Made by a program: the position numbers and the translations under genes
Origin: Bacteroidota bacterium
GTDB lineage: Bacteria > Bacteroidota > Bacteroidia > Bacteroidales > Prolixibacteraceae
Length of the DNA stretch: 64,000 nt
NCBI GenBank assembly: GCA_030684645.1
Contig: JAUXUF010000179.1
Span: 40,279-104,278 of the forward strand
Direction: 5' to 3'
In this document: in pieces, positions 14,050 through 64,000 of the stretch
Layout of the letters: every line of letters begins with the position of its first letter
Numbering within the stretch: position 1 is the first letter of the stretch
Notes under the pieces: generated by a model
What the model was told of the DNA's origin: nothing
The model's input: only the letters and a program-made list of their open reading frames with translations
Database searches by the model: none

Positions 14050-14113
14050 AAATTGAAATAATTATTAAGAATTAACACGCCATGTATGCAGCCATTAGCC
14101 TTATTTCAGCCCA

Positions 14114-15757: not shown

Positions 15758-15789
15758 TAATTTCGGAAAAAATATTCACTTTATCTTGA

Positions 15790-17373: not shown

Positions 17374-17374
17374 T

Positions 17375-21942: not shown

Positions 21943-22035
21943 GAATTATGATTTAGTTTTCTCAGATTTCAATCCCGCATGCAGCAAGACTTTCACTTTG
22001 ATGATTTTAGCAATTTACAGTTAATGTATTCCACA

Positions 22036-22054
22036 TGTCAATCAATAATTGACA
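22036..22054. promoter_or_regulatory. Perfect 7-bp inverted repeat, possible operator
   Basis: TGTCAAT-caata-ATTGACA, located between the conserved 44-bp motif and the GH38 start. Confidence 0.3.
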
Positions 22055-22077
22055 CTTGTTAAAAATAGATTTACCTG

Positions 22078-22121
22078 TTGCCAAATACTTCTGCTATTTT
22101 GGAGAAAGCACATTGAATATT
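22078..22121 (-). promoter_or_regulatory. Conserved 44-bp intergenic motif, copy A
   Basis: Minus strand aatattcaatgtgctttctccaaaatagcagaagtatttggcaa; 36/44 identical to 46234..46277. Both copies are intergenic, in the same orientation and upstream of a gene start. Confidence 0.6.
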
Positions 22122-22179
22122 AACCTAAAAGTTAGCCAAATAAACTTTATCCGGAAGAAAGAATCAAAATTCTTAGGAA

Positions 22180-22813: not shown

Positions 22814-22979
22814 TGGATTTGGATTTCTGGAATTTATTAAAAAACTGAATACCATCTAAATTCATCCCATCCGGTAAAGGGAGGATATGATAAACGTTAC
22901 CACCCCTGAGAAATCTGCTTTTCCATCAGATCAAATATTTAAGCTTACTGTGATGTTTAATTTTAAGTGGACACCCTAA

Positions 22980-41913: not shown

Positions 41914-41980
41914 TTTATCAAATTAGTTAGTTAATATTCAATACAGTAACAACTATTGAAAATAAACTACAACAAATATT

Positions 41981-44923
41981 TCAAGTCGGGCTTAGTAATT
42001 TACAAAACAGTTCTTTTGCCTGAATCTCATGCTTTTCCAAACCCGGGCCCGACCAACTTACCGATAAGGATTTGCCACCTCCACACTGGAAATATTTCAC
42101 CAGAATCGGATGCAGGCCAGCTTTCAATCCAATACTTCCGGGTTCTTCCTTTGAGCCATGATTGGCATCATTTTCAATCAGTTCCTGCCCATCGATGAAC
42201 AGTCGGCTTCCATCGTTTGAGATCAGGTAAAAGGTGTAAATTCCATCTTTGGGCACACGGATGAAACCATGAAAACGGTATCCGTAATAATTGTCTTTGG
42301 ACGCAATTTTAATGCTAAATACATCGGTAATACCCGAGCTGACAGGGGTGGAAATATCCAGATCGTCAGTAGTGACAAAGAATCGTTCGAAATAATCGTA
42401 TGCGAGACCTTGTTTTTCACTGACAATGTTAACCGGTCCACTCAGAATCGCTTTTTTAAACTCTATACTAATCGGGGTCGTTGGTGTCAGATCTTTACCG
42501 AACGCACGCATTTTTAAGGTACAGGATTCTTTTATAACAAATGGCGTGGAGTACAAAGCTGATTCTTCTCCGGGTTCCTTACCATCCAGCGAATATCTTA
42601 TCTCAGCATCCTTGGTGTCGCAATCGAGGCTCACCGTTGTTGATTGGCCAAATAAAGTTTCTCCGGATTTGATGTATGGAAGGGAAACGACCTGAGTGCC
42701 ATTTTCTGACCAGGGTCTTTCCGTTGGGTCACTTCCCCATTTTTCATTGGGCTTTGGGCCCATTTCAAAAGTCAGGACTCCGCCTTTCATAATATCTTCA
42801 TGACGAAGAAATGAATTCGGATATACCTTTCCGTTTAGTTTTGCCGACTGAATGTAACTATTTTCAGCCGAGCTGTTTTTTGCCCTGATCACGAATTTCT
42901 TTCCACTCTCCAGATTGATAGTCGCTTTTGCAAATAAAGGAGCGCCTATGGCGTAGATGGTTTGTCCGGGTGCTACCGGATAAAATCCCATCGAACTTAG
43001 AATGTACCAGGCAGATATTTGTCCGCAATCGTCGTTTCCGGCCAAACCTTCCGGCGAATTGGTATAAAGTTCAGTCAAAATCTGATGAACAAGTTTCTGC
43101 GTTTTCCATGCCTCACCCACATAATCATACAAATAAGCCAGGTGATGTCCGGGCTCGTTGCCATGCCAGTATTGCCCGATCTTGCCCCGTTCGCCAGGGC
43201 CTGTGTTCAGCGAAAAAAGCACATCGAGCCATTGTGAAAATTTCTGATCGCCACCCATCAAGGTCTTCAATCCATCCACGTCGTGCGGTACAAATAGGTA
43301 CTGGTAAGCATTTCCTTCAGAATAAGCTGAATTGACCAACGGATCGAATGGTTCGAGCCAGCTGCGATCGATGTTTTTGCCCCGCATAAATCCGGTGGAC
43401 GGATCGAAAACATTTGTATAGTTATGGGCCCGCTGGTGAAATTCAGAATAATCATCCTTCTTCCCCATTTCTTTGGCCATTTGCGAAATACACCAGTCGT
43501 CGTAACAATATTCCAGGGTCTTGGAAACCGACTCGCCTTGCCGGTCCGCCGGAAGAAACCCGATTTTTTTGTAGTATTTCAGGCCAAGTTTATCGAGTTC
43601 GGCGCTGTGTTTGATGGCCTTGAAAGCTTTTTCCACATCATAATTCCGGATGCCTTTCATGTAGGCATCCACAATCACCGGAACCGCATGATAACCCAAC
43701 ATATCGTCGGTGTAGTTTCCGGCAAGCGGCCACATCGGCAAGCGGCCACCATCGTCATAAATCTGCAAGAGCGTTTTTACGAAATCAGTGGTCCGTTTCT
43801 GATCGATGATGGTGAACAGCGGGTGCAACGCGCGGAACGTATCCCAGAGTGAAAATACCGTGTAATTCGTAAAGCCTTTTGCTGTATGCACCTGGTGATC
43901 AACGCCACGATACTGCCCGTCAACATCCATAAATACATTCGGGCTTAAACAGGCATGGTACATCGAGGTGTAAAAAACAGTCTGTTGTTCAGGCGTTCCA
44001 CCTTCAACTTCAATTCTTGACAATGCTTCATTCCACGATTTATTGGCTTCATGTACCACCCGATCAAAATTCCATTCCTGTATTTCTGCTGCAAGGTTTT
44101 TCCTTGCACCTTCAGCGCTAACTGCCGAGGTTCCCACTCTCACCAAAACAATTTCATTTTTTTTGGTTTTGAAACTGACCACGGCTTTTACATTTTTACC
44201 ATGTGCTTCTGATGAGCCTTTCTGAATCGAATCATTTAAAGCGACATCGAACGATGAAAATGGTCTGGAGAATTCGGCCACGAAATAAACATACTGATCC
44301 CATGCCCAGCCATGCGAACGGCGTAATCCTTCAACCGCTGTATCGCTTATTTTCTTAATATACAGGTCGTCGGCTCCAAAGGGATATGCCAGGTCAATAA
44401 TCACATGTGCGCTGTCGGTTTGGGGAAAAGTATATTGATGAAAACCACATCGTTGTGTGGCGGTCAGTTCTGCTTTTACCTGATAGTCTTTCAGGAATAC
44501 GCTGTAATATCCAGGCTTTGCAGTCTCCTGCCGGTGATCAAACGACGACCGGTACCCCGACTTTGTATTCATTTCGTCACCCGGCTGCAACTGAATTTTC
44601 CCAACGGTAGGCATAAAAAGTACATCGCGGTACTCCGGTTCGCCGACGCCGCTCAAGTGGGTATGCGAAAACCCAATGATGGTGCTGTCGTTAAAGGCAT
44701 ATCCACCGCAGGAATTCATCCGCGTATCCGGACTCAGCTGTACGCTTCCGAATGGAACAGAGGCTCCGGGATAAGTATTTCCATCAGCCGCACCACCGAT
44801 GAATGGGTTGGCCAAATGTGTATAGTCGCTGTGCGATGTGGTAATCTGAGAACATGAACTGAGCATCGTCAAACTTATCGCAAACAGTGAAATTAGTTTT
44901 GCTGGTTTCATTTGTGTATGCAT
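41981..44923 (-). CDS. GH92 alpha-mannosidase + Fn3-associated + PA14 (lipoprotein)
   Basis: 980 aa with lipobox LSSC. Motifs NTYPGASVPFGSVQLSPDT, FSHTHLSGVG, FSLWDTFRA, EGNAYQY, GNDDCGQISAW, IRYSLDGKEP and ENDANH. Confidence 0.95.
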   Translation of the reverse strand: MHTQMKPAKLISLFAISLTMLSSCSQITTSHSDYTHLANPFIGGAADGNTYPGASVPFGSVQLSPDTRMNSCGGYAFNDSTIIGFSHTHLSGVGEPEYRDVLFMPTVGKIQLQPGDEMNTKSGYRSSFDHRQETAKPGYYSVFLKDYQVKAELTATQRCGFHQYTFPQTDSAHVIIDLAYPFGADDLYIKKISDTAVEGLRRSHGWAWDQYVYFVAEFSRPFSSFDVALNDSIQKGSSEAHGKNVKAVVSFKTKKNEIVLVRVGTSAVSAEGARKNLAAEIQEWNFDRVVHEANKSWNEALSRIEVEGGTPEQQTVFYTSMYHACLSPNVFMDVDGQYRGVDHQVHTAKGFTNYTVFSLWDTFRALHPLFTIIDQKRTTDFVKTLLQIYDDGGRLPMWPLAGNYTDDMLGYHAVPVIVDAYMKGIRNYDVEKAFKAIKHSAELDKLGLKYYKKIGFLPADRQGESVSKTLEYCYDDWCISQMAKEMGKKDDYSEFHQRAHNYTNVFDPSTGFMRGKNIDRSWLEPFDPLVNSAYSEGNAYQYLFVPHDVDGLKTLMGGDQKFSQWLDVLFSLNTGPGERGKIGQYWHGNEPGHHLAYLYDYVGEAWKTQKLVHQILTELYTNSPEGLAGNDDCGQISAWYILSSMGFYPVAPGQTIYAIGAPLFAKATINLESGKKFVIRAKNSSAENSYIQSAKLNGKVYPNSFLRHEDIMKGGVLTFEMGPKPNEKWGSDPTERPWSENGTQVVSLPYIKSGETLFGQSTTVSLDCDTKDAEIRYSLDGKEPGEESALYSTPFVIKESCTLKMRAFGKDLTPTTPISIEFKKAILSGPVNIVSEKQGLAYDYFERFFVTTDDLDISTPVSSGITDVFSIKIASKDNYYGYRFHGFIRVPKDGIYTFYLISNDGSRLFIDGQELIENDANHGSKEEPGSIGLKAGLHPILVKYFQCGGGKSLSVSWSGPGLEKHEIQAKELFCKLLSPT

Positions 44924-50872: not shown

Positions 50873-53599
50873 CTATCGAACTATTTTAAGCTGTCCGGTG
50901 GATTTTATATCCGAAGAAGAACTACCGGCCATTAACCTGAATATTCCCGGTTCAACAACAAATAATTTTTTGTTTACGTCCCAAAAAGCCAAATCATTTA
51001 CCGGAAAAACAAGTTCAACTACCTTGCTTTCATTGGGTTTTAGCGAAACTCTTTCAAAACCAACCAGTTGTTTTTCAGGCCTTAGAACACTCGATTTTTC
51101 GTCGTGTGCATACAGTTGCACCACTTCCTCTCCGGCGCGGTTACCCCTATTTTTAATTTCAATTTTTACCGATACACTTCCTGTCTGATCAACAGGCCTG
51201 GATGAAACCTGCAACTTTCCATATTTAAACTGGGTGTAGCTGAGCCCAAATCCGAATGGATAAAGCACCTCGCTTATTTGTGATTTATCGCTCACGTTAT
51301 TCCCGTACATGTAAGTCCGCCCGTTGCGGATATCATAGTCACTGATTGAAGGCATTTTTTCAACCGATTTATAGAAAGTCATTGGCAAGCGACCTGCAGG
51401 ATTATAATCTCCAAAGATGACATCGGCCAAGGCATTTCCCGATTCCTCTCCATTGAACCATGCCTCGATAATTGAAGGAACATTTTCCTGAACCCAGTTA
51501 ATGGACATTGCCCCACCATTCTGCAGAACGACTATTGTTTTCGGATTGGCTTTAAACACCGCCTTAACCAAATCTTCCTGATCGCCAGGCAAATCCAGAT
51601 CAGAACGATCGACACCTTCTTTTTCCACGCTTCCATCAGTCCCTAAAACCACAACTGCCACGTCAGCATTTCGGGCTGCCTCAACTGCTTCTGCGAATTT
51701 ATCAGGATTCTGGGGCGCCCCCCAAAGTTTGACTGCTGCGTTATACCACTGTTCGGTATATTCGAGGCGCAGATCGTATTGTTTTCCCTTCTCCAATTCA
51801 ATTTTCACGGCAGCCGACGAACGGTTCCTGTTGAGCGTTTTATCGATGATCTTTTTACCATCAATGTAAAGTCGGATAGCATCGTCGAAATCGCCGCCAA
51901 TGTAATAAGGGCCCGAAACAGGGGCAATCAGTTTACCGGTCCACCTCACCGAATAGTAATCAACCGGCAGGCCAGGAACAGCAGCGCCTCTGCCAAAATT
52001 AAAATCAATCAGGGGATCAATGCGGGTTAAAACAGGTTCACCCGAACAATCTGTATTGTTGAAGTACTCGCCTTTTAAACCGTGCTCGCCGGGTTTTCCG
52101 CCAACTGGAATTAAATATTCTGTGGGAATGGCAGGCAGGCTTATTTTAATGTCGGTGCCTTTCACAAATTTCACTCTGATGCTGTCCAGTTTGTTAATGA
52201 TTCCCTGTAGCGGAGAAACTACATGGGAAAAGGCGCCGATGTACCCGCCCAGCTGGCAAACCGCGGCGTTCGGTCCAATTACTGCAACCGTTTTTACTTT
52301 ATTTTTATCCAACGGTAAAACCGCACCCTTGTTTTTCAACAAAACAATCGATTCACGCGCTATTTGCCGTGCCAATTCGAGATGGACATCACTGTGAACC
52401 ACTGAAAGTGGGATTTTAGTGTATGGCACCAATTCCGGAGGATCGTACAGTCCGAGCCGGAAGCGTGAAACAAGGATCCGGAACACGGCCGAATCGATGG
52501 TGGCTTCCGAAATCATCCCTTTCCGTACAACATCAGCCAGATGATCCCTGAAACAATCACCGCATTCGATATCCATGCCGGAGTTCAGTGCCAGGGCAAT
52601 GGCTTCCTCAGGGCCGGTTACATACTTATGACCTTCGTAAAAATCTTTAAGCCCGTTGCAATCGGAAACCACAGTTCCATCGAATCCCCATTCACCGCGA
52701 AGAATATCAGTCAGAAGTTCTTTATTTCCTGAACAGGGAACACCGTTCAGTCGGTTATATGCCGACATAATCTGTTCTGCTTTTCCTTCCTGAACAAGCA
52801 CCTGGTAGGGCTTCAGGTAATATTCACGTAAAAGTTGTTCATCAACATTGGAAGAACCATTGTGACGGCACCATTCTTCGTTGTTCAAAGCAAAATGCTT
52901 AGGTCCGGCTATCCCTTTCAGGTATTTGGGATGGTCGCCCTGGATACCTTTCACAAACTGAAGGCTGAGTTGCGAAGTAAGGTACGGGTCTTCACCGTAA
53001 CATTCTTCGGTACGTCCCCAGCGTGGGTCGCGTGCCATTTCGACAACCGGCGCCCAGAAAGTGAGCGTTGATTTGTTCATCTTAGCATGGAAACGGGGCC
53101 TTGCCTCATCCGACAATGCATTGCCAATGGCAAGGTTCATTTTCCTGTCCCATGTAGCGGCCTGTGCAATAGCTACCGGAAAAATAGTTGGAAAATCGTC
53201 TGCACGGGCGCTAACGCAATGACCTGCCTCGCCTCCCCACTGGTACCCCAAAATGCCAAGGCGCGGCAAATCAGTCGGAATACGAGTCATCATCTGCGAA
53301 AGTTTTTCTTCCAATGTCATTCGCGACAGCAAATCGGCAACACGCACTTTAAAAGATTGATTATAATCCATGTAAAGCGGTTTTTCGTCTGCTTTCTGCG
53401 CAAATAATGCGATGCTCTGAAAAACAAAAAATAAAAAGATCAGAGTATTTTTAAGTCTAAAGGTTAAGTCATGTCCGAAGAGTCTTTTTTTTGCCACGAA
53501 GGCACTAAAGCTCAATGTTACACTAAGAAAATTTTGCTTGAACTTTATTCTTTGTGTGACTTTCTGACTTGTCGCCTTGGTGGCATTTCTTTTTTCCAT
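50873..53599 (-). CDS. GH3 beta-xylosidase/glucosidase-type enzyme with PA14 insertion (5' end uncertain)
   Basis: 908 aa. Motifs RVADLLSRMTLEEK, ARDPRWGRTEECYGEDP, KHF, nucleophile motif VVSDC, PA14 insert GLKGEYFNN..YSVRWTG, EGVDRSDLDLPG and YPFGFGLSYT. Confidence 0.93.
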   Translation of the reverse strand: MEKRNATKATSQKVTQRIKFKQNFLSVTLSFSAFVAKKRLFGHDLTFRLKNTLIFLFFVFQSIALFAQKADEKPLYMDYNQSFKVRVADLLSRMTLEEKLSQMMTRIPTDLPRLGILGYQWGGEAGHCVSARADDFPTIFPVAIAQAATWDRKMNLAIGNALSDEARPRFHAKMNKSTLTFWAPVVEMARDPRWGRTEECYGEDPYLTSQLSLQFVKGIQGDHPKYLKGIAGPKHFALNNEEWCRHNGSSNVDEQLLREYYLKPYQVLVQEGKAEQIMSAYNRLNGVPCSGNKELLTDILRGEWGFDGTVVSDCNGLKDFYEGHKYVTGPEEAIALALNSGMDIECGDCFRDHLADVVRKGMISEATIDSAVFRILVSRFRLGLYDPPELVPYTKIPLSVVHSDVHLELARQIARESIVLLKNKGAVLPLDKNKVKTVAVIGPNAAVCQLGGYIGAFSHVVSPLQGIINKLDSIRVKFVKGTDIKISLPAIPTEYLIPVGGKPGEHGLKGEYFNNTDCSGEPVLTRIDPLIDFNFGRGAAVPGLPVDYYSVRWTGKLIAPVSGPYYIGGDFDDAIRLYIDGKKIIDKTLNRNRSSAAVKIELEKGKQYDLRLEYTEQWYNAAVKLWGAPQNPDKFAEAVEAARNADVAVVVLGTDGSVEKEGVDRSDLDLPGDQEDLVKAVFKANPKTIVVLQNGGAMSINWVQENVPSIIEAWFNGEESGNALADVIFGDYNPAGRLPMTFYKSVEKMPSISDYDIRNGRTYMYGNNVSDKSQISEVLYPFGFGLSYTQFKYGKLQVSSRPVDQTGSVSVKIEIKNRGNRAGEEVVQLYAHDEKSSVLRPEKQLVGFERVSLKPNESKVVELVFPVNDLAFWDVNKKLFVVEPGIFRLMAGSSSSDIKSTGQLKIVR
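53493..53584. repeat. Palindromic REP/MITE-like element within the 5' extension of the GH3 ORF
   Basis: Left arm GCCACGAAGGC pairs with right arm GCCTTGGTGGC (one mismatch). Inner repeats cactaaag / cactaag / ctttgtgtg. Confidence 0.55.
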
Positions 53600-53614: not shown

Positions 53615-54772
53615 CTATTTGATGAATTTATTGGGAATATAGAGATACGATTCGCCCCAAATCAATACCACTACCGGATATTTGGAAGCTTTTAGTTCGG
53701 CATAATTTAATTCCAGGTATTTGTCGTCGCCCCAAAAAGGAAGCCTGTCCCAAACGGTGTGCCCCAGTTCCAGCTCATGTCCGGGCAATATCAATTCAGG
53801 ATTAAAACCCCGGGCAATCCTGAAAATATCCATCGTCCACGCATTGGGCATAAACACGTCAACATGATGTTTTTTGGCTACCTGATCAATCCAGTCGTAG
53901 TCAATCATGAAATCCCCTTCGTTAATCTGATCGCCAATATGGGCAAGGGTAATTCCTTCCGGAGTTTTAACCAGGTAAACATTGTTGATGGCTGAATGCA
54001 ACTGGTGGCCCGGATAGACATACAAACCGAGTATGTATTTTTTAAGTTTCAACTGCTGAAGCTTTTCAGCTACCCGTTCAGGATGGATTATTTTGGAATA
54101 AACAGGATCGTTAGGCCAGGTCTCTTCAGTCGCCAAAACCGGAAGCCCCAGGGCAATAAACTGCTGTGCCATTTTCAGGTCAGCATGATCTTCGTGCCGG
54201 TGGGTTATCAGCAGCGCATCGCATTGGCGGACGATCCGCTGAATTTCATCCTGATTCATAGCAAAGTCTTCTGATTGCGAAGTTATTCCACTAACCAGGT
54301 CAAAAGCAAGAGTGACAGTTTTGGTTCGTGCGATGAATCCCATATCATAAACTTTCCAGATCCGGACCCCTTTTTCGACCTTGGTCGTTTCAAGTTCCCG
54401 AATTACCTGATTGACGCGGGCATGAAAAAACTCCTGAACTGGTCTCCGGTAAACGGCAAAATGTTCATGAAAGACGGCATCCATCAGCAGTTTGGCAGTT
54501 GTTCTTTCAAAATTATCATGAACAACAGGAGAGTATTTTGAAAGAACTGATTGAACCGTATCTAAAAAGACTTTGGCCTGCCGGTCGAGGTAATCATTGT
54601 CCTTTTGGCTCAGTTGAGGATCGGGCAATCCTCCTCCTTCCTTCTTGTCATACATTTGTGCTGACAGCTCCTGAAATCCGGAGAGAACAAAGAGGATCAG
54701 CAGAAAAATGAGGTGCAATTTTAGTTTTCTCATTCTGAGCATATTAGTAAAGGGAGACTCGTTAAACCACAT
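53615..54772 (-). CDS. Secreted MBL-fold metallo-hydrolase (UlaG-like; probable start about 54733)
   Basis: 385 aa with signal peptide MRKLKLHLIF... Metal motif THRHEDHAD, plus HIGDQ and ILPGHELE. Confidence 0.85.
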   Translation of the reverse strand: MWFNESPFTNMLRMRKLKLHLIFLLILFVLSGFQELSAQMYDKKEGGGLPDPQLSQKDNDYLDRQAKVFLDTVQSVLSKYSPVVHDNFERTTAKLLMDAVFHEHFAVYRRPVQEFFHARVNQVIRELETTKVEKGVRIWKVYDMGFIARTKTVTLAFDLVSGITSQSEDFAMNQDEIQRIVRQCDALLITHRHEDHADLKMAQQFIALGLPVLATEETWPNDPVYSKIIHPERVAEKLQQLKLKKYILGLYVYPGHQLHSAINNVYLVKTPEGITLAHIGDQINEGDFMIDYDWIDQVAKKHHVDVFMPNAWTMDIFRIARGFNPELILPGHELELGHTVWDRLPFWGDDKYLELNYAELKASKYPVVVLIWGESYLYIPNKFIK

Positions 54773-54775
54773 TGA

Positions 54776-55798
54776 TTATCTGAAATTCCTTGCTGTTTCA
54801 ATCATCATTTTCAAGTTCTCTGAAGGTGTATTGGGCGGAATAGCACAACCTGCATTGAGAATAAACCGACTTGAATTCTGATAGACCGTTAATAATTCAA
54901 GTGTCTTTTTCTGAACAGAATCAACTGTACCCAAAGCTAAAACTCCGCTTGGATCAATATTCCCAATGAGCGCTGTTCGATCAGAAAGAGTATTGTAGAT
55001 TTTAGAAATGTCAGTTTTATAGTCCAATTCGAAAGCGTCAGCTCCGGTCAACAGCATGTGATCCAGAATAACCTCCGTATTGCCGCAAATATGTAAAGTG
55101 TACGCAACACCGGCATGATGAGCTACTTCCACGATTTTCTTTTCGTAAGGCATCGCATATTTTAAATACATTTCAGGTGAAATCATTTCAGGTCCTGCCG
55201 GGCTATCGCCATTGGAAACCATATCGCAACCGGTTTGGGCCATTAGTTTGATAAACTGTGAACTGGCATCGGTACAATATTCAAGCAACAATTCAAGTTG
55301 TTCGTCGGTTTCTATCATCAAATCGAGCATCCAGTTTTGTGCCCCGCGCATCATACTGGCCAGAGAGAAAGGCGCCTGGTCGCAGTTTCCGCGAATGTAA
55401 ATCTCATCTTTAAAATAATCCTTCAGTAAACGAACTGATTCCAGCCAAACCTGAATGTACTTGTAATCTTCAACTTTGCATGGTTTCAGGTTGACCGCAT
55501 CTTCCAGATTTGCCAGATTGCCAAGGTGTGTGCGGGCCGGGTCATCGACAGGAAAATCAACAGGAACCCCAACTGCACCGGCAAGGGTTACGGTGTCGAG
55601 ATCAACCAGAATGCCGTCATACTGATATTTTTCTACTGAAGCGATAAAGGTTTCTGCGATAACCCTGGGGCTATTGCGGTATTGCTCCATGGTAACTCCA
55701 TGCTCTCTGGCTGCCATCATGAAATTATGAAGCATCACAGGAACTTTATCTGTTTTTTCTCCTATTAATGCAGCGTTTATTCGTTCAAATCCGTTCAT
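54776..55798 (-). CDS. URO-D-fold, MtaA/CmuA-like Zn-dependent methyltransferase family protein (not HemE)
   Basis: 340 aa, cytoplasmic. Motifs MNGFERI..ALIGEKTDKVPV, EAVGVPV-like AGAVGVPV, APFSLASMMRG, MISPEMY, LHICG, LIGNIDPSGVL..GT and ILNAGCAIPPNTPSEN. It lacks the HemE RQAGR motif. Confidence 0.85.
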   Translation of the reverse strand: MNGFERINAALIGEKTDKVPVMLHNFMMAAREHGVTMEQYRNSPRVIAETFIASVEKYQYDGILVDLDTVTLAGAVGVPVDFPVDDPARTHLGNLANLEDAVNLKPCKVEDYKYIQVWLESVRLLKDYFKDEIYIRGNCDQAPFSLASMMRGAQNWMLDLMIETDEQLELLLEYCTDASSQFIKLMAQTGCDMVSNGDSPAGPEMISPEMYLKYAMPYEKKIVEVAHHAGVAYTLHICGNTEVILDHMLLTGADAFELDYKTDISKIYNTLSDRTALIGNIDPSGVLALGTVDSVQKKTLELLTVYQNSSRFILNAGCAIPPNTPSENLKMMIETARNFR

Positions 55799-55814
55799 AA
55801 TACTTCTCTAAAAA

Positions 55815-57167
55815 TTAACAAAGCACTTCCTTTTCAATCTGCTCCAGCGTTTTGCCTTTGGTTTCAATGATCTGTATTTTCAAATAAATGAATCCAATGA
55901 AAGTAACTACCGCAAAAAAGATAAAGGCATAACTCATTCCCAACTGCTGTGCTGCCTGGCTGATCCCAAAAAATCCAATGACAACCGGGAAGAGAAAATT
56001 GAGGGAGGCGCTGACTACCCAGTTCGCAAAAGAGCCCATTGATGCGCCTCTTGCCCGAATTACGTTTGGAAACATTTCGGACAACAACACCCAAACTACG
56101 ACCCCTTGTGATGCTGCAAAAAAAGCAATATACGCTACCAATAATGCCACTAACCAATAACCAGTAATATTTCCTGTAAGAAGTCCATAGCCAAACAATC
56201 CAAGAACTACCACCATTCCCATCTGTCCGAATAGTAATAGTTTTTTCCTTCCCACTTTATCTATGATTGCCATTGCAATAAGTGTAAAAAGCAAATTTGT
56301 AGCACCTAATATGACACTCTGGATCATGGAAGAGCCACTGGAAAAACCGGCAATGCTGAATATCTGGGAAGAATAATAAAATACAACACCGATACCAGTG
56401 AGCTGACTAAAAATTCCTACAAATATTCCGATGTAGATTATTCTACGATACGGTTTCTTAAATAAATTAATTCTTTTACCTGCATTTTCTGTTTGGATCG
56501 ATTCCTGAATTTCAAGGATCGTCTGTTCCGTATCAATTTCATGAGATGATAATTCTTCAATATTTTTCCGTGCTTCTTCTATTCGACCTTTTTTCACCAG
56601 CCAGCGCGGACTCTTCCTGATCACCAAAAGCATCAGGAAAAACGCAACTGCTGGAATAGCGCCGCTAAAAAGCATCCAACGCCAGTTTTGGTCTCCCAAA
56701 TCAAGCAACAAATAATTGGATATCAGCGACAATAAAATTCCAAGCACAATTGCCAGCTGAAAGGTAGATGCCAATAAACCCCGGTGTTTGGGTGGAGAAA
56801 TTTCGGAAATATATACCGGACAAAGCACGGAAGCGCCACCAATAGCCAAACCGCCAATAAACCGGAAAAGAATGAACGAACTGATATTTGTTGCCATTCC
56901 ACAGCCAACTGATGAAGCAAAAAACAGGATGGCCAGCAATTGCAGCAAGCGTTTTGCCCCATATACATCGCCTGGTTTTCCAATCAGGATAGTACCTAAT
57001 ATACATCCAATCAGGGCTGAACTCACTGTCCATCCCTGCAATGCAGAACTAAGCTGAAAGTACTTTACCAAATCGAGCATGGCCCCATTGATGATTACCG
57101 TGTCGTAACCGAATAACAAGCCTCCCAAGGCTGCCGCAACAGTACATTTTATAAGTATTTTATTCAT
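55815..57167 (-). CDS. Sugar porter family MFS transporter (XylE-like)
   Basis: 450 aa. Motifs LGGLLFGYDTVIING, PVYISEISP..RG, SPRWL, SQLTGIGVVFYY, DKVGRK, WVLLSEMFP and ETKGKTLE. Its ATG overlaps the upstream GH3 stop (57164-57167). Confidence 0.95.
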   Translation of the reverse strand: MNKILIKCTVAAALGGLLFGYDTVIINGAMLDLVKYFQLSSALQGWTVSSALIGCILGTILIGKPGDVYGAKRLLQLLAILFFASSVGCGMATNISSFILFRFIGGLAIGGASVLCPVYISEISPPKHRGLLASTFQLAIVLGILLSLISNYLLLDLGDQNWRWMLFSGAIPAVAFFLMLLVIRKSPRWLVKKGRIEEARKNIEELSSHEIDTEQTILEIQESIQTENAGKRINLFKKPYRRIIYIGIFVGIFSQLTGIGVVFYYSSQIFSIAGFSSGSSMIQSVILGATNLLFTLIAMAIIDKVGRKKLLLFGQMGMVVVLGLFGYGLLTGNITGYWLVALLVAYIAFFAASQGVVVWVLLSEMFPNVIRARGASMGSFANWVVSASLNFLFPVVIGFFGISQAAQQLGMSYAFIFFAVVTFIGFIYLKIQIIETKGKTLEQIEKEVLC

Positions 57168-59545
57168 TTCTTTGTTTTTACACTCAGTTCATTCAATTCA
57201 AAATTCAGTAACGAATAAGGGTACATTACATTATGTGCCTTCTCTGCGACCATTTCTTCAGGTAAAGTAAATGAAGCTTTGAGCCGGATATCTTTCGATG
57301 ATGCACCCATGCGAACTTCATAAATCCCTTTATCGGCTACCCAAGCACTGATTCCACTCCAGAAGGAAGCCAGGGAACGTGCATCGAGTTCAAAAGTCAG
57401 ATTCTGGCTTTCTCCCGGTTGCAGCAGCTTTGTTTTGGCAAATCCTTTCAATTCCTGAACCGGTTTTTCAATTTCAGTATTTGGGGCTGCCAGGTATAGT
57501 TGAACCACCTCTTTCCCTGGTACCTTTCCAGTATTTTTCACAATTACGTTTACTTTCATCTTACCGGTGAAGGTAGGGCTACTCAACTTTAAATCAGAGT
57601 ACTCAAAGGTTGTATAGGAAAGTCCATAACCAAATTCGAAGGCAACAGGCACTTTAAATGAGTCGTAGTAACGATAGCCCACGTAAATTCCTTCGTTGTA
57701 TAACACAGGATTAATATTTGCTTTTTGAGATTCAGGTTCGATTGTAAAGTTTGGGGCAGAGGGCACGTCTTCATACTTAATCGGGAATGACACCGGCAAT
57801 TTTCCTGAAGGATTTACAGAACCTTTCAGCACATCGGCTACTGCATTGCCACCCTGTTCACCTGTTTGCCAGGCAAGCAGAATGGCATCCGGAAGGTCTC
57901 TCCAGCTGGCAGTTTCAAAAGCGCCACCAACATTTAGGATTACCACAACCTTTTTCCCGGCAGCATGATAAACCTCGCACACGTCCCGTACTAAATTTTG
58001 TTCCACATCATCCAGTGGAATATAACCATTGTCGTGTCCTTCGCCACCAGAGCGGCCTATCATAATAACAGCAATATCGGATTCTGCAACCTGCTTTGCA
58101 ATGTCAGCTTTTGATATTTTCAGTTCAGGATGAAATGGAATTATCCGTCGTTTAAAATAGTCTGTTACCTTGCTGCTATTGGAAAATATGGTGTCTACAA
58201 AATTTGAATAGGTATCATCGAGGTATTTTACAACCTGAAATCCTGCATTTTTTATCCCCTCATTCAGCGTTACCGAGTGAATTGGTTTCGACTCGCCACT
58301 GCCCGATCCGCTGGCCACAAAAAAATACGAACCTTTACTGAAAAGTGCAACTGTTTTCACATTGGCACTGAATGGCAGTGTCGTATTGCTATTCTTAAGC
58401 AAAACCATCGCCTCACTGGCAGATTCTCTGGCGAGTGCAACGTGGGTAACCTTATCGAATTTTAAAGATGGCTTGTAGCCTTTGGAGCGAGGTGTTTTCA
58501 TCTTGAATTTCAAAACGTATTCTACACTCTTATCGATCTCTTTTTCATCCAGCGTTTTGTCTTTCAGGGCTGCTTTAATCTCATCAATTTCAGCCTTGCT
58601 ACCACTCATCAGGAGGTTGCTTCCGGCCCTAACTTTTGCCACCGCACTGCCCAGACCATCCCAGTCGGTCATGAATAGTCCGTCGAAACCCCACTCCTGA
58701 CGCGTAACGATTTTTAGCAATTCAGGATTTTCAGCCGTATAGAATCCGTTAAACTTATTGTAGGAAGTCATGATTGACCATGGATGGCCTTCCTTCACCG
58801 CAATTTCAAAACCGCGCAGGTAAATTTCCCGTAAGGCCCGCTGACTGATAATTGCATTATAACTCCTTCGGTTGGTTTCCTGATTGTTGGCTGCAAAGTG
58901 CTTGATGGAAGTTCCTACACCTTGCGATTGCACGCCACGGACATAAGCTGCCGCCATTTTTCCGGACAACAGCGGATCTTCCGAAAAGTACTCGAAGTTA
59001 CGGCCACACATCGGATTGCGCTGTATATTCAGTCCCGGTTCCAGCATAATATCCACGTTAGATTCTTTCACTTCGTTGCCAATGGCCTCACCCACTTTTT
59101 CGATCAGGTCAGTATTCCAGGTTGCTGCCAAGGATGTTTCACTTGGAAAAGCGGTATAGCGAACTTCCTGAGTCGAATCTTTAGGATTGGTGCCGGCAAT
59201 GGTTATACCGCCCATTACAGTTGATTTTATACCCAACCGGGGAATGCCCCACACGCAACCATCCACCGTCGGGGTAAAAAGTGATGCACTTTTCGGAAAT
59301 GTATTATCCTCGATACTGATTCCAGATTTTGGGTCGTAAACAGGTATTCCGGGAGGTGGTGTTTTTCCATCTCCAACTCCGACGATGAGCGCTATCTTTT
59401 CGTCTATAGTCAGTGCCGCAATAACATCTTCCAGCTTGTCTTTGCCCAATTGCGGATTACTGCTTTTTGGGGCAACGCATGATTGCAGGCCGAGTTGAAG
59501 CACAATCAGAAGTGAGATAAACCTAATCGAAATTTGAATCTTCAT
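57164..59545 (-). CDS. GH3 beta-glucosidase-type lipoprotein (tandem copy 1)
   Basis: 793 aa with lipobox LQSC. Motifs RNPMCGRNFEYFSEDP, KHFAANNQE, nucleophile FMTDW, SGGEGHD and YNEGIYVGYRYYD. Confidence 0.95.
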   Translation of the reverse strand: MKIQISIRFISLLIVLQLGLQSCVAPKSSNPQLGKDKLEDVIAALTIDEKIALIVGVGDGKTPPPGIPVYDPKSGISIEDNTFPKSASLFTPTVDGCVWGIPRLGIKSTVMGGITIAGTNPKDSTQEVRYTAFPSETSLAATWNTDLIEKVGEAIGNEVKESNVDIMLEPGLNIQRNPMCGRNFEYFSEDPLLSGKMAAAYVRGVQSQGVGTSIKHFAANNQETNRRSYNAIISQRALREIYLRGFEIAVKEGHPWSIMTSYNKFNGFYTAENPELLKIVTRQEWGFDGLFMTDWDGLGSAVAKVRAGSNLLMSGSKAEIDEIKAALKDKTLDEKEIDKSVEYVLKFKMKTPRSKGYKPSLKFDKVTHVALARESASEAMVLLKNSNTTLPFSANVKTVALFSKGSYFFVASGSGSGESKPIHSVTLNEGIKNAGFQVVKYLDDTYSNFVDTIFSNSSKVTDYFKRRIIPFHPELKISKADIAKQVAESDIAVIMIGRSGGEGHDNGYIPLDDVEQNLVRDVCEVYHAAGKKVVVILNVGGAFETASWRDLPDAILLAWQTGEQGGNAVADVLKGSVNPSGKLPVSFPIKYEDVPSAPNFTIEPESQKANINPVLYNEGIYVGYRYYDSFKVPVAFEFGYGLSYTTFEYSDLKLSSPTFTGKMKVNVIVKNTGKVPGKEVVQLYLAAPNTEIEKPVQELKGFAKTKLLQPGESQNLTFELDARSLASFWSGISAWVADKGIYEVRMGASSKDIRLKASFTLPEEMVAEKAHNVMYPYSLLNFELNELSVKTKK

Positions 59546-59554
59546 ATCTTTATA

Positions 59555-61933
59555 TTATTTGCTATTCCGGCTCAACTCCTTCATAGCAAAATTGGGGAAC
59601 AAGGCATCATGCACTTTTTCGACCACTACATCTTTTCTCAAATTAAAAGAAGCTTTTAGGCGGATATCTTTCGATGACGCGCCAATGCGAACCTCGTAAT
59701 CGCCCTGATCGGCCACCCACGAGCTGATGCCACTCCGGAATGAAGCCAGCGAGCGGGCATCCAGTTCAAAAGTCAATTGCTGGGTTTCATCCGGTTGCAA
59801 CAGCTTTGTTTTTACAAATCCCTTTAATTCCTGATCAGGTTTCTCAACTTCCGAAGTTGGAGCCGAAAGATAGAGTTGGACTACCTCTTTGCCCGGAACT
59901 TTTCCGGTATTTTTCACTGTAATTTTCACCTCCATTTTATCGGCAAAAGTTGAGCTACTCAACTTCAGATCAGAGTATTCAAAGGTTGTGTACGACATAC
60001 CATAGCCAAACTCGTAGGCTGTTGGAACCTTAAAAGTATCGTAATAGCGGTACCCAACATAGATACCTTCTTTGTAAAACGAATTGACCGGATTGTCAGC
60101 AGGCTCTCCGGGGAAAGTTGTTGCAGAAGGTACGTCCTCGTATTTTATTGGGAATGAGTCTGGCAGCTTACCAGATGGATTAACTGCACCTTTTAGAATA
60201 TCGGCAACGGCATAGCCGCCTTCCTGTCCGGGCTGCCACGCGAGCAGAATGGCATCGGGATAGTTGCGCCAGGAGGCTGTTTCGCAAACACCTCCTACAT
60301 TGAGCACCACCACGACCTTTTTCCCGGCAGCATGGTATGCATCGCACACATTTCGCACCAGCTCGATTTCTGTTTCAGAACTTGGGAAATAGCCGTTTTC
60401 ATAACCTTCGCCACCACTTCGGCCCAGAGTAATAACGGCAATATCGGTATTCGGTATTTGTTTTTCAATTTGTTGCCTGGTCATCGCCATTTCCTCATGA
60501 AACGGGATCAGCCTTTTTTTGAAGTGAGGTGGAGCTTTACCATCTTTAACACCATTAGCAGCCAGCATGACGGGATTATTGAAAAAATCAGGAACCAGAT
60601 TTTTTTCCATGATATCCGCATTGAAGGCCGTGAAAGCATCCTCCATTTCTTTCAATACCTGAAAACCTGCGGCTTTGAGCCCCTGGTTTATGGAAACAGC
60701 ATACTTATTACTCCGGATGCCCCCGCTACCAGTGCCTGACTCAATCAAATAGTAGCCAATTTTACCAAACAAGGCGACTGTTTTCACGTCATGAAAAGGA
60801 AGAGCATTATTCTCATTTTTAAGAAGCACCATGCCCTCAGTTGCTGCCTCTCTGGCAATTGACGCATGAGCTTCCAGTTCCGGTTTCATGGTTGGGACAT
60901 GGCCATTCATGCGAGGTGAGTTTAGCTTGAGCTGCAGGTTATAAACCAGATTTTTAGCGAGCATACTCTCATCCAGCGTTTTGTCTTTAAGCGCTGCCGT
61001 CAGTTCGTTAACCTCATCCATGTTTCCTCCCATCAGCATGTTGTTACCAGCCCTGACTTTGGCCACGGCACTTCCGTAACCGTCAAAATCAGTCATGAAA
61101 ACTCCGTTAAATCCCCATTCCTGACGGACAATGTCCTGAAGCAATTCAGGATTTTCAGCGGTATAGAAGCCATTTAACTTGTTGTAAGAAGTCATGATTG
61201 CAGCGGGTTTACCTTCTTTCACGGCAATTTCAAAACCACGCAGGTAAATTTCGCGCAAAGCCCTTTGGCTAACCACAGCATTGTAGGTCCTACGGTTTGT
61301 TTCCTGATTATTCGCCAGAAAATGTTTTAAAGTGGCGCCAACTCCATTGGATTGGAGGCCAATGACAATGGACGCAGCCATTTTTCCGGAGAGTAAGGGA
61401 TCTTCGGAATAATACTCAAAGTTGCGTCCGCACTTCGGATTGCGATGAATGTTTAATGCCGGCATCAGTACCACATCGTTGTCGTATTCCAGCAACTCAT
61501 TTCCAAAGGCCTTTCCTACTTTAGCCAGCATTTCGATGTTCCAGGTGGCTGCAAGACAGCTCGAAGTAGGAAATGCTGTAGAATAATAATACTCAGTACT
61601 TCCGGCCGGATGAGGATCCCTGTTCACTCCGGAAGGGCCATCGGTTAGTGATGAATTCATAACAGAAAGACGTGGAATAACCATTTTTGAATTTTGGTTG
61701 GCAATAATGATTCCGGTGCCTTGCTCAATGGTTTTTGAATTGGTTGCAGGCAAAAATTTCCCATCGCCAACGGTCATGCCAATTTTTTCTTCCGGAGTCA
61801 TGGCTGCAATTACATCTTCCAACTTAGCTTTACCCAGCTGTGGCTCTGTACTTTTACCGGTACTGCAAGCCTGAATGGCCAACACAATCACAACCAGGAG
61901 TGTAAAAATCAATGTCGAAATTTTTTGTTTCAT
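59555..61933 (-). CDS. GH3 beta-glucosidase-type lipoprotein (tandem copy 2)
   Basis: 792 aa with lipobox IQAC. Motifs LTDGPSG, RNPKCGRNFEYYSEDP, KHFLANNQE, FMTDF and SGGEGYE. Confidence 0.95.
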   Translation of the reverse strand: MKQKISTLIFTLLVVIVLAIQACSTGKSTEPQLGKAKLEDVIAAMTPEEKIGMTVGDGKFLPATNSKTIEQGTGIIIANQNSKMVIPRLSVMNSSLTDGPSGVNRDPHPAGSTEYYYSTAFPTSSCLAATWNIEMLAKVGKAFGNELLEYDNDVVLMPALNIHRNPKCGRNFEYYSEDPLLSGKMAASIVIGLQSNGVGATLKHFLANNQETNRRTYNAVVSQRALREIYLRGFEIAVKEGKPAAIMTSYNKLNGFYTAENPELLQDIVRQEWGFNGVFMTDFDGYGSAVAKVRAGNNMLMGGNMDEVNELTAALKDKTLDESMLAKNLVYNLQLKLNSPRMNGHVPTMKPELEAHASIAREAATEGMVLLKNENNALPFHDVKTVALFGKIGYYLIESGTGSGGIRSNKYAVSINQGLKAAGFQVLKEMEDAFTAFNADIMEKNLVPDFFNNPVMLAANGVKDGKAPPHFKKRLIPFHEEMAMTRQQIEKQIPNTDIAVITLGRSGGEGYENGYFPSSETEIELVRNVCDAYHAAGKKVVVVLNVGGVCETASWRNYPDAILLAWQPGQEGGYAVADILKGAVNPSGKLPDSFPIKYEDVPSATTFPGEPADNPVNSFYKEGIYVGYRYYDTFKVPTAYEFGYGMSYTTFEYSDLKLSSSTFADKMEVKITVKNTGKVPGKEVVQLYLSAPTSEVEKPDQELKGFVKTKLLQPDETQQLTFELDARSLASFRSGISSWVADQGDYEVRIGASSKDIRLKASFNLRKDVVVEKVHDALFPNFAMKELSRNSK

Positions 61934-61938
61934 TTTGT

Positions 61939-64000
61939 CTATTTTTTAGTTTGATTTAGTTCGTCTAATGGAAAGTCAGGATACAGCACGTTATGTGCTT
62001 TTTCAACAATAATTTCTTCAGGCAGGCTGAATGACCCTTTGAGGCGAATGTCTCTGGATGAAGCACCAATACGCACCTCATAACTGCCTTTATCTGCTAC
62101 CCATGCGCTGATACCGCTCCAGAAGGATGCCAGTAAACGGGCATCCAGTTCAAAAGATATGAGCTGGCTTTCGCCCGGCTGAAGCAGCTTTGTTTTGGCG
62201 TATCCTTTGAGTTCCTGAATTGGTTTCTCAATCTCTGTATTTGGGGCTGACAGATAAAGTTGCACCACCTCTTTTCCCGGAAGCTTCCCGGAGTTTTTGA
62301 CAGTTACATTTACCGTCATTTTTCCTGAAAATGATGGGCTACTCAATTTCAAATCCGAGTATTCAAAGGAGGTATAGGAAAGGCCAAAGCCAAACTCATA
62401 GGCATCAGGTACCCTGAAGGTATCGTAATACCGGTAACCCACGTAAATTCCTTCGTTGTACAATTGCGGCAATGTGCTGATGTGAACCTTTCGATGACCA
62501 AGGAAAGCATATCCCTCATATTTTCCATCGGTATAAAGCGTCGGAACTGTATCTTCAGGAATCCCGTTGGCTAAATATCCATTATCGGTAATTATTACCT
62601 TGTTGGGAAATGTTTTGGAGGATGGCACATCAGCGTATTTTACAGGTACAGTGGTGGGCAGTTTTCCTGAAGGATTCACATCTCCTTTTAAAACGTCAAC
62701 CAGCGCATTGCCTGCTTCCTGACCCAGCTGCCAGGCCATAAGGATCGCATCAGGGTAATTGCGCCAGCTGGCCATTTCAATGACTCCCGGTACATTCAGT
62801 ATAACCACCACTTTTTTCCCGGCAGCGTGATATGCCTCTGAAACATTTCGAATTAGTGCCTGTTCGGTCTCCGACAGGTTGAAAAAATCATCCTCACGCC
62901 TGTCCCATCCTTCGCCTGAATTACGGCCAATGGTGATGATCGCCAGATCGGAACTGGATACTTGTTCTGAAATAATTGACCTAGGAAGGACTAACTCGGG
63001 ACAATAGGAAATCATGTATTTTTGCCACTTCCACCAGGTCAGTTTTTTAGATTCTTCAGCCCTGACTTTGGTAAGTTGATTCGTGTACCAATCTGCCAAA
63101 GGTTTATTCACCAGGTAATACCTTTTCGTCAGTGCTTCATCAAGTGAAACAACATATTCGTTATTCACCAGGGCACTGCCTGCTCCTCCAACAATGAAAT
63201 CGTAGGATGTTTTGCCAAAAAGAGCCACTTTTTTTACTCCGCCAAAAGGCAAAGCATTGCTGTTTTTTAGAAGGACGATGGCCTCAGTAGCTGCCTCATG
63301 GGCTGTTGCAGCGTTTTCCTTCAGGTTTGGCTGGTACGATGGTTTGTATTGTTTAAATCGAGGGGTTTTCTGAATCAGGGTAAGCACCCGTGCCAGATTT
63401 TTATCCAGCACTTTCCCGTCCAATTTTTTATTTTTTAAACCGGCAAGCAGTTGATTCTGTTCGATGGATTCACCGGGCATCAGAAGATCACTTCCGGCGG
63501 AAACCTTAGCCACGGCATCGGCTCCACAGGTCCAGTCTGTTAAAACTACGCCTTCAAAGCCCCATTCCTTTCTCAGGATAGAATCAAGCAAATCAGGATT
63601 TTCGCAGGTATAGCGACCATTGAGCCGGTTGTACGATACCATGACTGTCCACGGTTTTGACTCTTTTACGGTAATTTCAAATCCTCTGAGATATATTTCG
63701 CGTAAGGCACGCTGGCTTATCACTGAATTTTGAGTCTTCCGGTTGGTTTCCTGATTATTGGCCAGAAAATGTTTGATCGAAGTACCAACTCCCATCGACT
63801 GAACTCCTCGGACCAGAGCTGCCGCTGTTTTTCCGGAAAGCAGCGGGTCTTCTGAACAATACTCAAAATTGCGGCCGCACAAGGGATTTCGCTGGATGTT
63901 CTGTCCCGGACCCAGAAGAATATCAGAGTTGTATTCCAGCGACTCATTTCCCATGCCTTTGCCGACTTTCTCAATCAGTTCATCATTCCAGGTAGCTGCC
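61939..64000 (-). CDS. GH3 beta-glucosidase-type enzyme (tandem copy 3), 5' end beyond the window
   Basis: The frame stays open upstream of the listed Met at 63954 (..AATWNDELIEKVGKGMGNE..) to the window edge. Motifs RNFEYCSEDP, VLTDW and NSGEGWDR. Confidence 0.93.
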   Translation of the reverse strand, partial: AATWNDELIEKVGKGMGNESLEYNSDILLGPGQNIQRNPLCGRNFEYCSEDPLLSGKTAAALVRGVQSMGVGTSIKHFLANNQETNRKTQNSVISQRALREIYLRGFEITVKESKPWTVMVSYNRLNGRYTCENPDLLDSILRKEWGFEGVVLTDWTCGADAVAKVSAGSDLLMPGESIEQNQLLAGLKNKKLDGKVLDKNLARVLTLIQKTPRFKQYKPSYQPNLKENAATAHEAATEAIVLLKNSNALPFGGVKKVALFGKTSYDFIVGGAGSALVNNEYVVSLDEALTKRYYLVNKPLADWYTNQLTKVRAEESKKLTWWKWQKYMISYCPELVLPRSIISEQVSSSDLAIITIGRNSGEGWDRREDDFFNLSETEQALIRNVSEAYHAAGKKVVVILNVPGVIEMASWRNYPDAILMAWQLGQEAGNALVDVLKGDVNPSGKLPTTVPVKYADVPSSKTFPNKVIITDNGYLANGIPEDTVPTLYTDGKYEGYAFLGHRKVHISTLPQLYNEGIYVGYRYYDTFRVPDAYEFGFGLSYTSFEYSDLKLSSPSFSGKMTVNVTVKNSGKLPGKEVVQLYLSAPNTEIEKPIQELKGYAKTKLLQPGESQLISFELDARLLASFWSGISAWVADKGSYEVRIGASSRDIRLKGSFSLPEEIIVEKAHNVLYPDFPLDELNQTKK

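Follow-up and report, generated by a model that had tools for sequence, protein, structure and literature searches.

The window analysed here, a stretch of 64,000 nucleotides (nt) of groundwater metagenome origin from a member of the Prolixibacteraceae (Bacteroidota), carries one long array of glycoside hydrolase (GH) genes in which a gene for a protein of the uroporphyrinogen decarboxylase (URO-D) fold stands directly behind a sugar porter gene. All 32 open reading frames (ORFs) of at least 200 amino acids (aa) lie on the minus strand. The run around the URO-D gene reads, in order of transcription, a GH3 cut by the window end, two further GH3s, a sugar porter of the major facilitator superfamily (MFS), the URO-D-fold protein, a protein of the metallo-beta-lactamase (MBL) fold and a GH3 with a PA14 insert (Table 1). 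A preliminary description had reported tight packing in one orientation, and the sequence bears this out: the stop of the GH3 gene at 57164-59545 and the start of the porter share an ATGA overlap (57164-57167), porter and URO-D gene are 16 bp apart, the longest MBL ORF begins 3 bp after the URO-D gene and the next GH3 follows the MBL ORF after 15 bp. The NCBI product of the MBL gene, 372 aa starting at M14, gives a URO-D/MBL gap of 42 bp. A terminator scan revealed no intergenic terminator-like site inside the run. Over the whole window, promoter and terminator scans stayed at or below chance level and an Rfam search returned no RNA element. Protein locations are predictions based on N-terminal hydrophobicity.

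Table 1. Genes of the run around the URO-D-fold protein, in order of transcription, and the GH92 pair downstream.
Feature	Position in window	Strand	Description
GH3	61939..64000, continues past window end	-	829 aa in the same-sample Logan contig L086, where it opens the run
Secreted GH3, tandem paralogue	59555..61933	-	792 aa; GH3 domains, signal peptide
Secreted GH3	57164..59545	-	793 aa; GH3 N-terminal, C-terminal and Fn3-like domains; signal peptide/lipoprotein-like N-terminus
MFS sugar-porter-family H+ symporter	55815..57167	-	450 aa; Sugar_tr, TIGR00879
URO-D-fold zinc methyltransferase-like protein	54776..55798	-	340 aa, predicted cytoplasmic; PF01208
Secreted MBL-fold protein	53615..54772	-	HRHEDH motif, signal peptide; likely true start M14 at 54733
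GH3 with PA14 insert	50873..53599	-	908 aa; prolongs the co-directional array
Two secreted GH92 alpha-mannosidases	38920..44923	-	997 and 980 aa; same co-directional array

The URO-D-fold protein matches Pfam family PF01208 over its full length (227 bits over residues 5-338, above the gathering score). Among the NCBIfam models, mtaA_cmuA (TIGR01463) scored 168.3 bits, under its subfamily cut-off of 235.4, and the models for methylcobalamin:coenzyme M methyltransferase, MtbA and MtaA scored 164, 142 and 136 bits, all below their curated cut-offs. The hemE model (TIGR01464) reached 106.8 bits against an equivalog cut-off of 302.95. The best sequence match in the PDB is MtaA of Methanosarcina mazei (4ay7; E 8e-23, identity about 20%), and HemE structures follow at 5e-14 and weaker. 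The motifs LHICG and NAGC and the lack of RQAGR, on which the preliminary description had relied, are all confirmed. LHICG holds H236 (55093-55091) and C238 (55087-55085), NAGC holds C318 (54847-54845), and the two motifs align residue for residue to LHICGN and PGCG of 4ay7. RQAGR occurs nowhere in the protein, and the equivalent place reads VMLHNFMMAARE. All 84 orthologues keep the H-x-C...C pattern, as do 100 of the 103 full-length representatives of the family, whose identity goes down to 29%; conservation of this extent in aligned sequences rules out a chance motif. An AlphaFold2 model (pLDDT 77, pTM 0.82) has the URO-D barrel, and a Foldseek search of the PDB gave a TM-score of about 0.75 to HemE and MtaA alike, with no separation of the two. 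The family numbers 3,679 matches at E < 1e-10, the top 120 clusters being 77-100% identical, and it has an invariant D68 and a T69-G77 block that are not shared with MtaA. Judged by profiles and motifs, the 340-aa protein belongs to the zinc-type methyltransferases within the URO-D superfamily, as a divergent member of that branch nearest to MtaA/CmuA.

The setting of the gene was compared across relatives at 80 genome loci and 4 further loci, which together give 84 orthologue loci (81 of them non-redundant) and, with the window, 85 neighbourhoods. Neighbouring ORFs were called and clustered, the clusters were named with Pfam, and genes separated by gaps of at most 300 bp were counted as one same-strand run. 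The hosts are Bacteroidales (Prolixibacteraceae, Mariniphaga, Draconibacterium, Paludibacter, Rikenellaceae, Lentimicrobiaceae) and Ignavibacteria/Melioribacteraceae. An MFS porter lies in the run of the URO-D orthologue in 52/81 loci, in agreement with the tie to a monosaccharide importer proposed in the preliminary description, and stands directly upstream in 35 of the 81 with a median gap of 22 bp. AGE-family proteins (33/81) and GH38 alpha-mannosidases (32/81) share the run as well; the AGE-family neighbour is cellobiose-2-epimerase-like and matches 3wkf at E 7e-86. Signal peptides were predicted for 36 of 52 GH38s and for none of the URO-D or epimerase-like proteins. Other recurrent neighbours are GH20, GH130, GH29, a GH76-like protein, sulfatases, GFO/IDH/MocA oxidoreductases and AraC regulators, and GH92 is also found near orthologues. 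According to these counts and the predicted locations, the conserved unit is a secreted alpha-mannosidase, a monosaccharide porter, and the cytoplasmic URO-D protein with the epimerase. GH38 and the epimerase are absent from the window, where the porter-enzyme pair alone is kept, among other glycosidases than in the relatives.

The porter of the window scored 346 bits against Sugar_tr and 339.5 bits against TIGR00879, above the subfamily cut-off of 237.8, and 308.8 bits against the XylE equivalog, whose cut-off of 608 was not reached; no equivalog cut-off was reached. Across loci the porter is up to 88% identical, compared with 42% identity to the other porter of the window, and its identity tracks that of the URO-D protein (r = 0.81). 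On this evidence from sequence comparison, the porter is a distinct, dedicated orthologue whose divergence goes along with that of the URO-D enzyme. The second MFS sugar porter, the one with 42% identity, comes after two secreted GH32 genes (12715-17373, minus strand), and this GH32-GH32-porter set forms a fructan-type uptake unit in the same array. Two isolates, Puteibacter caeruleilacunae JC036 and Draconibacterium aestuarii Z1-6, carry the porter-URO-D gene pair. Downstream of the porter, URO-D and GH38 genes of loci L001, L002 and L011, at a distance of 3 kb, a gene at 14381-18748 encodes a 1455-aa fusion of BcrAD_BadFG and DUF2229, a combination of the activator/component type of 2-hydroxyacyl-CoA dehydratase.

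The GH3s and the MBL hydrolase, which the preliminary description had counted as parts of the module, are not conserved with it; the recurring partners are the porter, GH38 and the epimerase-like enzyme. The GH3s form a cluster of four, with three members in the window and one in a single other locus among the 85 neighbourhoods, and they were rejected as conserved partners. The MBL-fold protein is a singleton cluster, absent from 84/84 other neighbourhoods, and was likewise rejected; going by its distribution, it is a local passenger of the glycan locus that stands outside the module. Its ORF reached 23.0 bits against Pfam Lactamase_B_3, a weak match below the cut-off of 24, with HRHEDH as the HxHxDH motif, and its PDB matches (3kl7 and UlaG, E about 0.4) are weak too.

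Corrinoid machinery stands beside the orthologue in several relatives. The corrinoid protein found there has 222 aa and domains PF02607 and PF02310, carries the DxHxxG motif as GDLHDIGKN and is encoded within 10 kb of the orthologue in 7 loci. In loci L008 and L020, with orthologues that share 83% and 80% identity with that of the window, an operon that we call the hub lies within about 2 kb of the orthologue. An AraC gene and a truncated corrinoid-protein gene separate the two in L008, and an AraC gene alone in L020. The hub of L008 encodes the corrinoid protein, a Pterin_bind protein of 280 aa, a DUF5981-methylenetetrahydrofolate reductase (MTHFR) and a protein like the Met_synt_B12 activation domain; the gene order in L020 is GH20, porter and orthologue, then AraC and corrinoid protein, Pterin_bind and MTHFR. 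The operon of L049/L050 consists of homocysteine S-methyltransferase, epimerase, porter, a second URO-D paralogue in which H-D-D replaces H-C-C, the orthologue (71%), corrinoid protein and activator. In L036 a further URO-D paralogue precedes the genes for corrinoid protein, homocysteine methyltransferase and activator, and in L019 a pair of MtaB (535 bits) and corrinoid protein (852-3026) is divergent from epimerase, GH38 and orthologue. No Ram/RACE protein was found among the annotated neighbours.

A reverse survey that started from the corrinoid protein found its closest relatives always within the hub, a conserved operon of Bacteroidales. In L090 the hub is extended by a URO-D paralogue and formate-tetrahydrofolate ligase (FTHFS). 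Its neighbours include GH115 and CE15 (L088), GH10 and GH67 (L089), GH115 and a LacI regulator (L096), SusC/SusD, GH3 and CE15 (L101), and a sugar kinase with a xylose-isomerase-like gene (L087, L094, L095). These neighbours are glucuronoxylan and xylose genes, and by its gene context the hub belongs to sugar catabolism. Glucuronoxylan bears 4-O-methyl-glucuronate, and the setting of the hub suggests B12-dependent demethylation of this sugar released from xylan. At least five more groups of URO-D-fold paralogues occur in the same glycan neighbourhoods (L023, L036, L045, L047, L059, L074, L081, L008, L020-L022). Their residues at the zinc positions read H-D-D, H-C-H, H-D-H and a distant H-C-C, with cluster 42 in addition. 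Some of these paralogues directly adjoin corrinoid proteins. In L023, three URO-D genes and a fourth, divergent paralogue share 21 kb; the window has only one URO-D gene.

For the source genome itself, the evidence comes from sequencing depth and collinearity. The contig of the window has a k-mer depth of 10.8, and a 13,278-nt contig of the same groundwater run has a depth of 11.1. The latter is collinear with the AraC and corrinoid protein genes of L008 and L020 and, over about 3 kb, with the AraC / corrinoid protein - MtaB genes of L107. From these matches, an MtaC/MtaB pair at the least is likely to be present in the same organism, for which no hub was located, and the corrinoid components of the source genome are probably encoded outside the 64-kb window. 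Contigs of the same-sample run X1 gave no match to L019, and a tetranucleotide comparison of L087 (hub) with L001 (porter and URO-D gene, same sample) was uninformative, at rank 22 of 68. As a separate observation, Bacteroidales have MtaB together with a corrinoid protein like MtaC, next to a divergently oriented AraC regulator (L019, L107 at 10001-12200 and the 13,278-nt contig). Such a pair hints at the use of methanol, for example from pectin, in a lineage that is neither acetogenic nor methanogenic.

In bacterial three-component systems the methyltransferase I (MT1) is substrate-specific, and the corrinoid protein and the methyltransferase II (MT2) can be shared. The reading that we favour, at about an even balance between right and wrong, is that the URO-D protein would be such a substrate-specific MT1. 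It would transfer a methyl group from the ether oxygen of an imported sugar (probably methylated mannose) to a corrinoid protein encoded elsewhere. We infer every step of the route, and sequence evidence bears directly on its first two. Secreted exo-glycosidases (GH3s and GH92s in the window, GH38 in most relatives) would free a methylated monosaccharide in the periplasm, and the dedicated MFS sugar:H+ symporter would bring it into the cell. There the zinc site of H236, C238 and C318 may bind the methoxy oxygen and polarise the O-CH3 bond, as MtaB does with methanol, so that Co(I) of a separate MtaC/MtbC-type corrinoid protein could take the methyl group and leave the free sugar. Methyl-Co(III) would next be discharged to tetrahydrofolate by a shared pterin-binding MT2, with MTHFR acting after it; FTHFS, present in the locus of one relative (L090), would complete oxidation of the methyl group to formate. 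In some lineages a homocysteine S-methyltransferase may instead use methyl-Co(III) to make methionine. The protein like the MetH activation domain would repair cobalt oxidised to Co(II), and in relatives the demethylated hexose would be handled by the cellobiose/mannose-2-epimerase-like enzyme.

The Glu/Cys/Cys zinc site of MtaB activates the C-O bond of methanol for attack by Co(I), and by analogy a sugar alkoxide is a leaving group comparable to the one in that reaction, a precedent for the step proposed here. The MT2 of the methanol system (MtaA) of Moorella thermoacetica and two other acetogens has about 30 kDa (PMC13391211), a size matched by the 280-aa Pterin_bind protein of the hub. The best candidate sugar would be a methylated mannose or another methylated hexose, because the partners are GH38 and the epimerase, with GH92, GH130 and GH20 nearby. 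O-methyl-mannose and methylated hexoses are found in methylated N-glycans from green algae and from invertebrates, and also in bacterial mannans with methyl caps. The preliminary description had proposed an O-methyl-sugar demethylation module built on an MT2-like enzyme. The idea is supported in part, by the porter link and by the corrinoid machinery beside the orthologues of relatives, which such a module requires; MT1 is more likely than MT2 as the role, and in place of the suggested 2-O-methyl-fucose, 2-O-methyl-xylose and 3-O-methyl-rhamnose the gene context favours methylated mannose or another hexose.

Several points weigh against the favoured MT1 role. A tblastn search of the 64-kb window detected no corrinoid protein, MtaB, pterin methyltransferase, MT2 or activator. 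The lack of a corrinoid protein, MT1 and activator in the window, already noted in the preliminary description, therefore stands, though it does not extend to the lineage (L008, L020, L049, L050, L019) and probably not to the genome. A corrinoid protein lies within 10 kb in only about 8 of the 84 loci, and the 13,278-nt contig is tied to the source genome by its equal depth alone. The nearest sequences of the URO-D protein, by profile and database match, are MT2 enzymes (MtaA, MtbA). An H-C-C zinc site is classically thiol-activating, the ether-cleaving MT1s MtvB, OdmB and VdmB have other zinc ligands, and we know of no corrinoid methyltransferase that acts on a methyl ether of the alkyl (sugar) kind. 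The sugar is identified from neighbouring genes only, and the substrate in the window could differ because GH38 and the epimerase are absent there. The sequences establish the family, the zinc motif, the conserved operon and the linkage to corrinoid modules in relatives; the sugar as substrate, the role as MT1, what becomes of the methyl group and the presence of partners in the source genome are inferred, and the activity is a predicted one.

Among the alternatives, it is unlikely, if worth keeping in mind, that the protein is an MtaA-type MT2 that passes the methyl group to a thiol or other acceptor and is linked to the porter through co-regulation with glycan breakdown. The best sequence matches are indeed MT2s (4ay7 and the NCBIfam MtbA and MtaA models), H-x-C...C is the thiol-activating site of MtaA, MtaB and a corrinoid protein adjoin the orthologue in L019, and a contig probably of the same genome bears a corrinoid protein and MtaB. 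However, the linked systems already own an MT2, as Pterin_bind in L008 and L020 and as homocysteine methyltransferase in L049, and for this reason the URO-D protein fits MT1 better. Methanol can do without a sugar porter, yet nothing in these loci is conserved better than the porter-enzyme pair, and MtaB adjoins the orthologue in just 1/84 loci. To our knowledge, coenzyme M has not been reported from Bacteroidales, which also counts against this role. With an MT2 already present and the URO-D gene tied to a sugar importer, an MT1 acting on an imported methyl sugar is the most economical reading. That the protein is an ordinary uroporphyrinogen decarboxylase, HemE, is hardly credible. It has the Pfam URO-D match, Foldseek ranks HemE structures equal to MtaA and many relatives are so named by JGI and NCBI, but it scores 107 bits against a cut-off of 303, it has a zinc Cys/His motif in place of RQAGR, no haem genes lie close by and it is a sugar operon that is conserved around it. 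HemE was rejected on these grounds, as in the preliminary description, and the assignment to a zinc-type family like MtaA/CmuA is upheld, though below the cut-off of that family.

It is quite unlikely that the protein, as a zinc enzyme with the URO-D barrel, works without a corrinoid and acts on the imported sugar itself, by thiol addition or transfer (like epoxyalkane:CoM transferase), by direct alkyl transfer of the MetE type or by another zinc-assisted conversion of the sugar. Most loci, the window included, have no corrinoid gene within 10 kb, the invariant D68 and the T69-G77 block are absent from MtaA, and the URO-D superfamily includes corrinoid-independent zinc enzymes (PMC10418091). 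This proposal has to face the repeated linkage of the orthologue, in independent lineages, to a corrinoid protein and activator, with or without an MT2, and the several URO-D paralogues nearby that directly adjoin corrinoid proteins. A corrinoid-dependent MT1 with another donor, either a methylated cyclitol (pinitol, for example) or a sugar with an S-methyl group (for example a methylthio-pentose), is very unlikely. The H-C-C zinc site would suit an S-methyl sugar, since MtsA-type enzymes with H-x-C...C use methyl thioethers as donors; the sugar-porter family includes inositol transporters, and the porter of the window stays below every equivalog cut-off. Nevertheless, GH38, the epimerase-like partner, GH92, GH130 and GH20 point to hexoses from mannosides or N-glycans.

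The MT1 role may be part of a wider arrangement. It is possible, at somewhat less than an even chance, that anaerobic Bacteroidales and Ignavibacteria carry out oxygen-independent, B12-dependent demethylation of methyl-etherified sugars through a shared hub operon, with several substrate-specific URO-D MT1 paralogues, scattered over glycan-utilisation loci, as its spokes. The hub would comprise the corrinoid protein, the pterin-binding methyltransferase, MTHFR, the MetH-like activator and sometimes FTHFS, often in glucuronoxylan loci, and the enzyme of the window would be a spoke tied to its dedicated porter and to mannoside-degrading genes.

Methyl ethers occur on many sugars, among them 4-O-methyl-glucuronate in xylan, 2-O-methyl-fucose and 2-O-methyl-xylose in rhamnogalacturonan II and 6-O-methyl-galactose in porphyran. 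The only sugar demethylase known to us is an oxygen-dependent cytochrome P450. Sugar methyl ethers are thought to slow microbial degradation (PMC6292453), and the question at stake is how anoxic sediments, groundwater, peat and guts handle methylated sugars. Neither anaerobic or corrinoid-dependent demethylation of sugars nor the presence of URO-D genes in glycan loci was reported in the full-text literature that was searched, which excluded subscription-only papers. If the proposal is true, this would be the first enzyme system for the anaerobic cleavage of sugar methyl ethers such as those of O-methyl-mannose or 4-O-methyl-glucuronate. It would open a new route from plant and algal glycans into one-carbon (C1) metabolism, an extra C1 source in anoxic carbon cycling, and would tie the breakdown of glycans in Bacteroidales to folate C1 metabolism, to the supply of methionine and to a dependence on cobamides. 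A direct test of the idea is within reach, since the two isolates named above carry the gene pair.

The remainder of the window is also devoted to glycan breakdown. Nearly all of the 32 ORFs encode secreted glycosidases or esterases: four GH3s, two GH92s, three GH95-like proteins, one each of GH29, GH78 and GH106, two GH32s, a GH28, a GH43-like protein, two SASA esterases and a DUF6259 protein. GH29, the three GH95-like proteins, GH78 and GH106 are the fucose/rhamnose enzymes that the preliminary description had seen in the cluster. The GH92 pair is the only mannose link in the window and lies 10-15 kb downstream of the porter-enzyme pair. Despite the Bacteroidota lineage, no SusC/SusD-type Pfam family was matched among the 32 ORFs of at least 200 aa. 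For the GH3 at 61939-64000, the ORF call of 671 aa from an internal ATG is misleading, as the frame is open to the window end. A collapsed GH92 remnant occupies 22192-22794 (minus strand) inside the ORF-poor stretch 21700-22980, and its pieces match aa 21-93, 700-759 and 869-973 (the C-terminal PA14 part) of the intact GH92s of the window. It is an internally deleted pseudogene, with about 600 bp left of a gene of ~3 kb. A 440-aa secreted protein at 49471-50793 (minus strand) has no Pfam match; the representative of its 90% cluster is a 41-aa E. coli fragment named 'TraA, partial', which looks like a clustering artefact.

Several known systems resemble the one proposed here. The MtaA/MtbA enzymes and the MtaA/CmuA family (TIGR01463; 4ay7) share with the URO-D protein the barrel and the aligned H-x-C...C, and genes for a separate corrinoid protein of the MtaC/MtbC type adjoin the orthologue in some relatives. 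The URO-D protein differs in its identity of only about 20%, its score below the cut-off, its Bacteroidales host, its conserved porter operon and the MT2 already present in the partner systems. The methyltransferase domain of CmuA indicates that the MtaA/CmuA family can also perform the MT1 half-reaction. The MtvABC, OdmABC and MtaABC systems of acetogens and Desulfitobacterium follow the same logic, with a specific MT1, a corrinoid protein, a pterin-binding MT2 that forms methyl-tetrahydrofolate and an activator. The MT1 of aryl-ether O-demethylases is also a URO-D superfamily protein, and in MtaB zinc activates an aliphatic C-O bond, which is the chemistry proposed for the URO-D protein. In contrast, the known substrates of those systems are aryl methyl ethers or methanol, and their hosts are acetogens or organohalide respirers with the Wood-Ljungdahl pathway. 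Their activator is an ATPase of the RACE/RamA type, whereas the Bacteroidales loci have a small protein like the MetH activation domain. Unlike the genes of the acetogen systems, the MT1 candidates of Bacteroidales are scattered in glycan loci away from the hub. The mannan pathway of cellobiose-2-epimerase and GH130 in Bacteroides and Ruminococcus is similar in that relatives of the window combine epimerase, transporter and often GH130. That pathway is not known to include a URO-D protein and has a different type of transporter, whereas the URO-D loci use secreted GH38 and a monosaccharide-type porter.

Orphan MtaA-like URO-D proteins together with corrinoid proteins, in anaerobic bacteria and with an unknown physiological substrate, have also been described in the Type 1 mlp clusters (PMC10418091). 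Those clusters differ in having two or three Mlps and a Ram/RACE activase, in occurring mostly in Firmicutes and in lacking an H4folate methylase. They have been proposed to act on methyl-sulfur or methyl-selenium compounds, and a term search of the same paper found no mention of sugars, carbohydrates or glycosidases (PMC10418091). A cytochrome P450 that demethylates 6-O-methyl-D-galactose has been reported from glycan-utilisation loci of marine Bacteroidetes (PMC6292453). Like the proposed system, it removes a sugar methyl ether after release from the polysaccharide and is encoded in glycan loci of Bacteroidota. It requires O2 and redox partners, yields formaldehyde and has an unrelated fold, whereas the proposed URO-D system would be independent of oxygen and would keep the methyl group as methyl-tetrahydrofolate or methionine.

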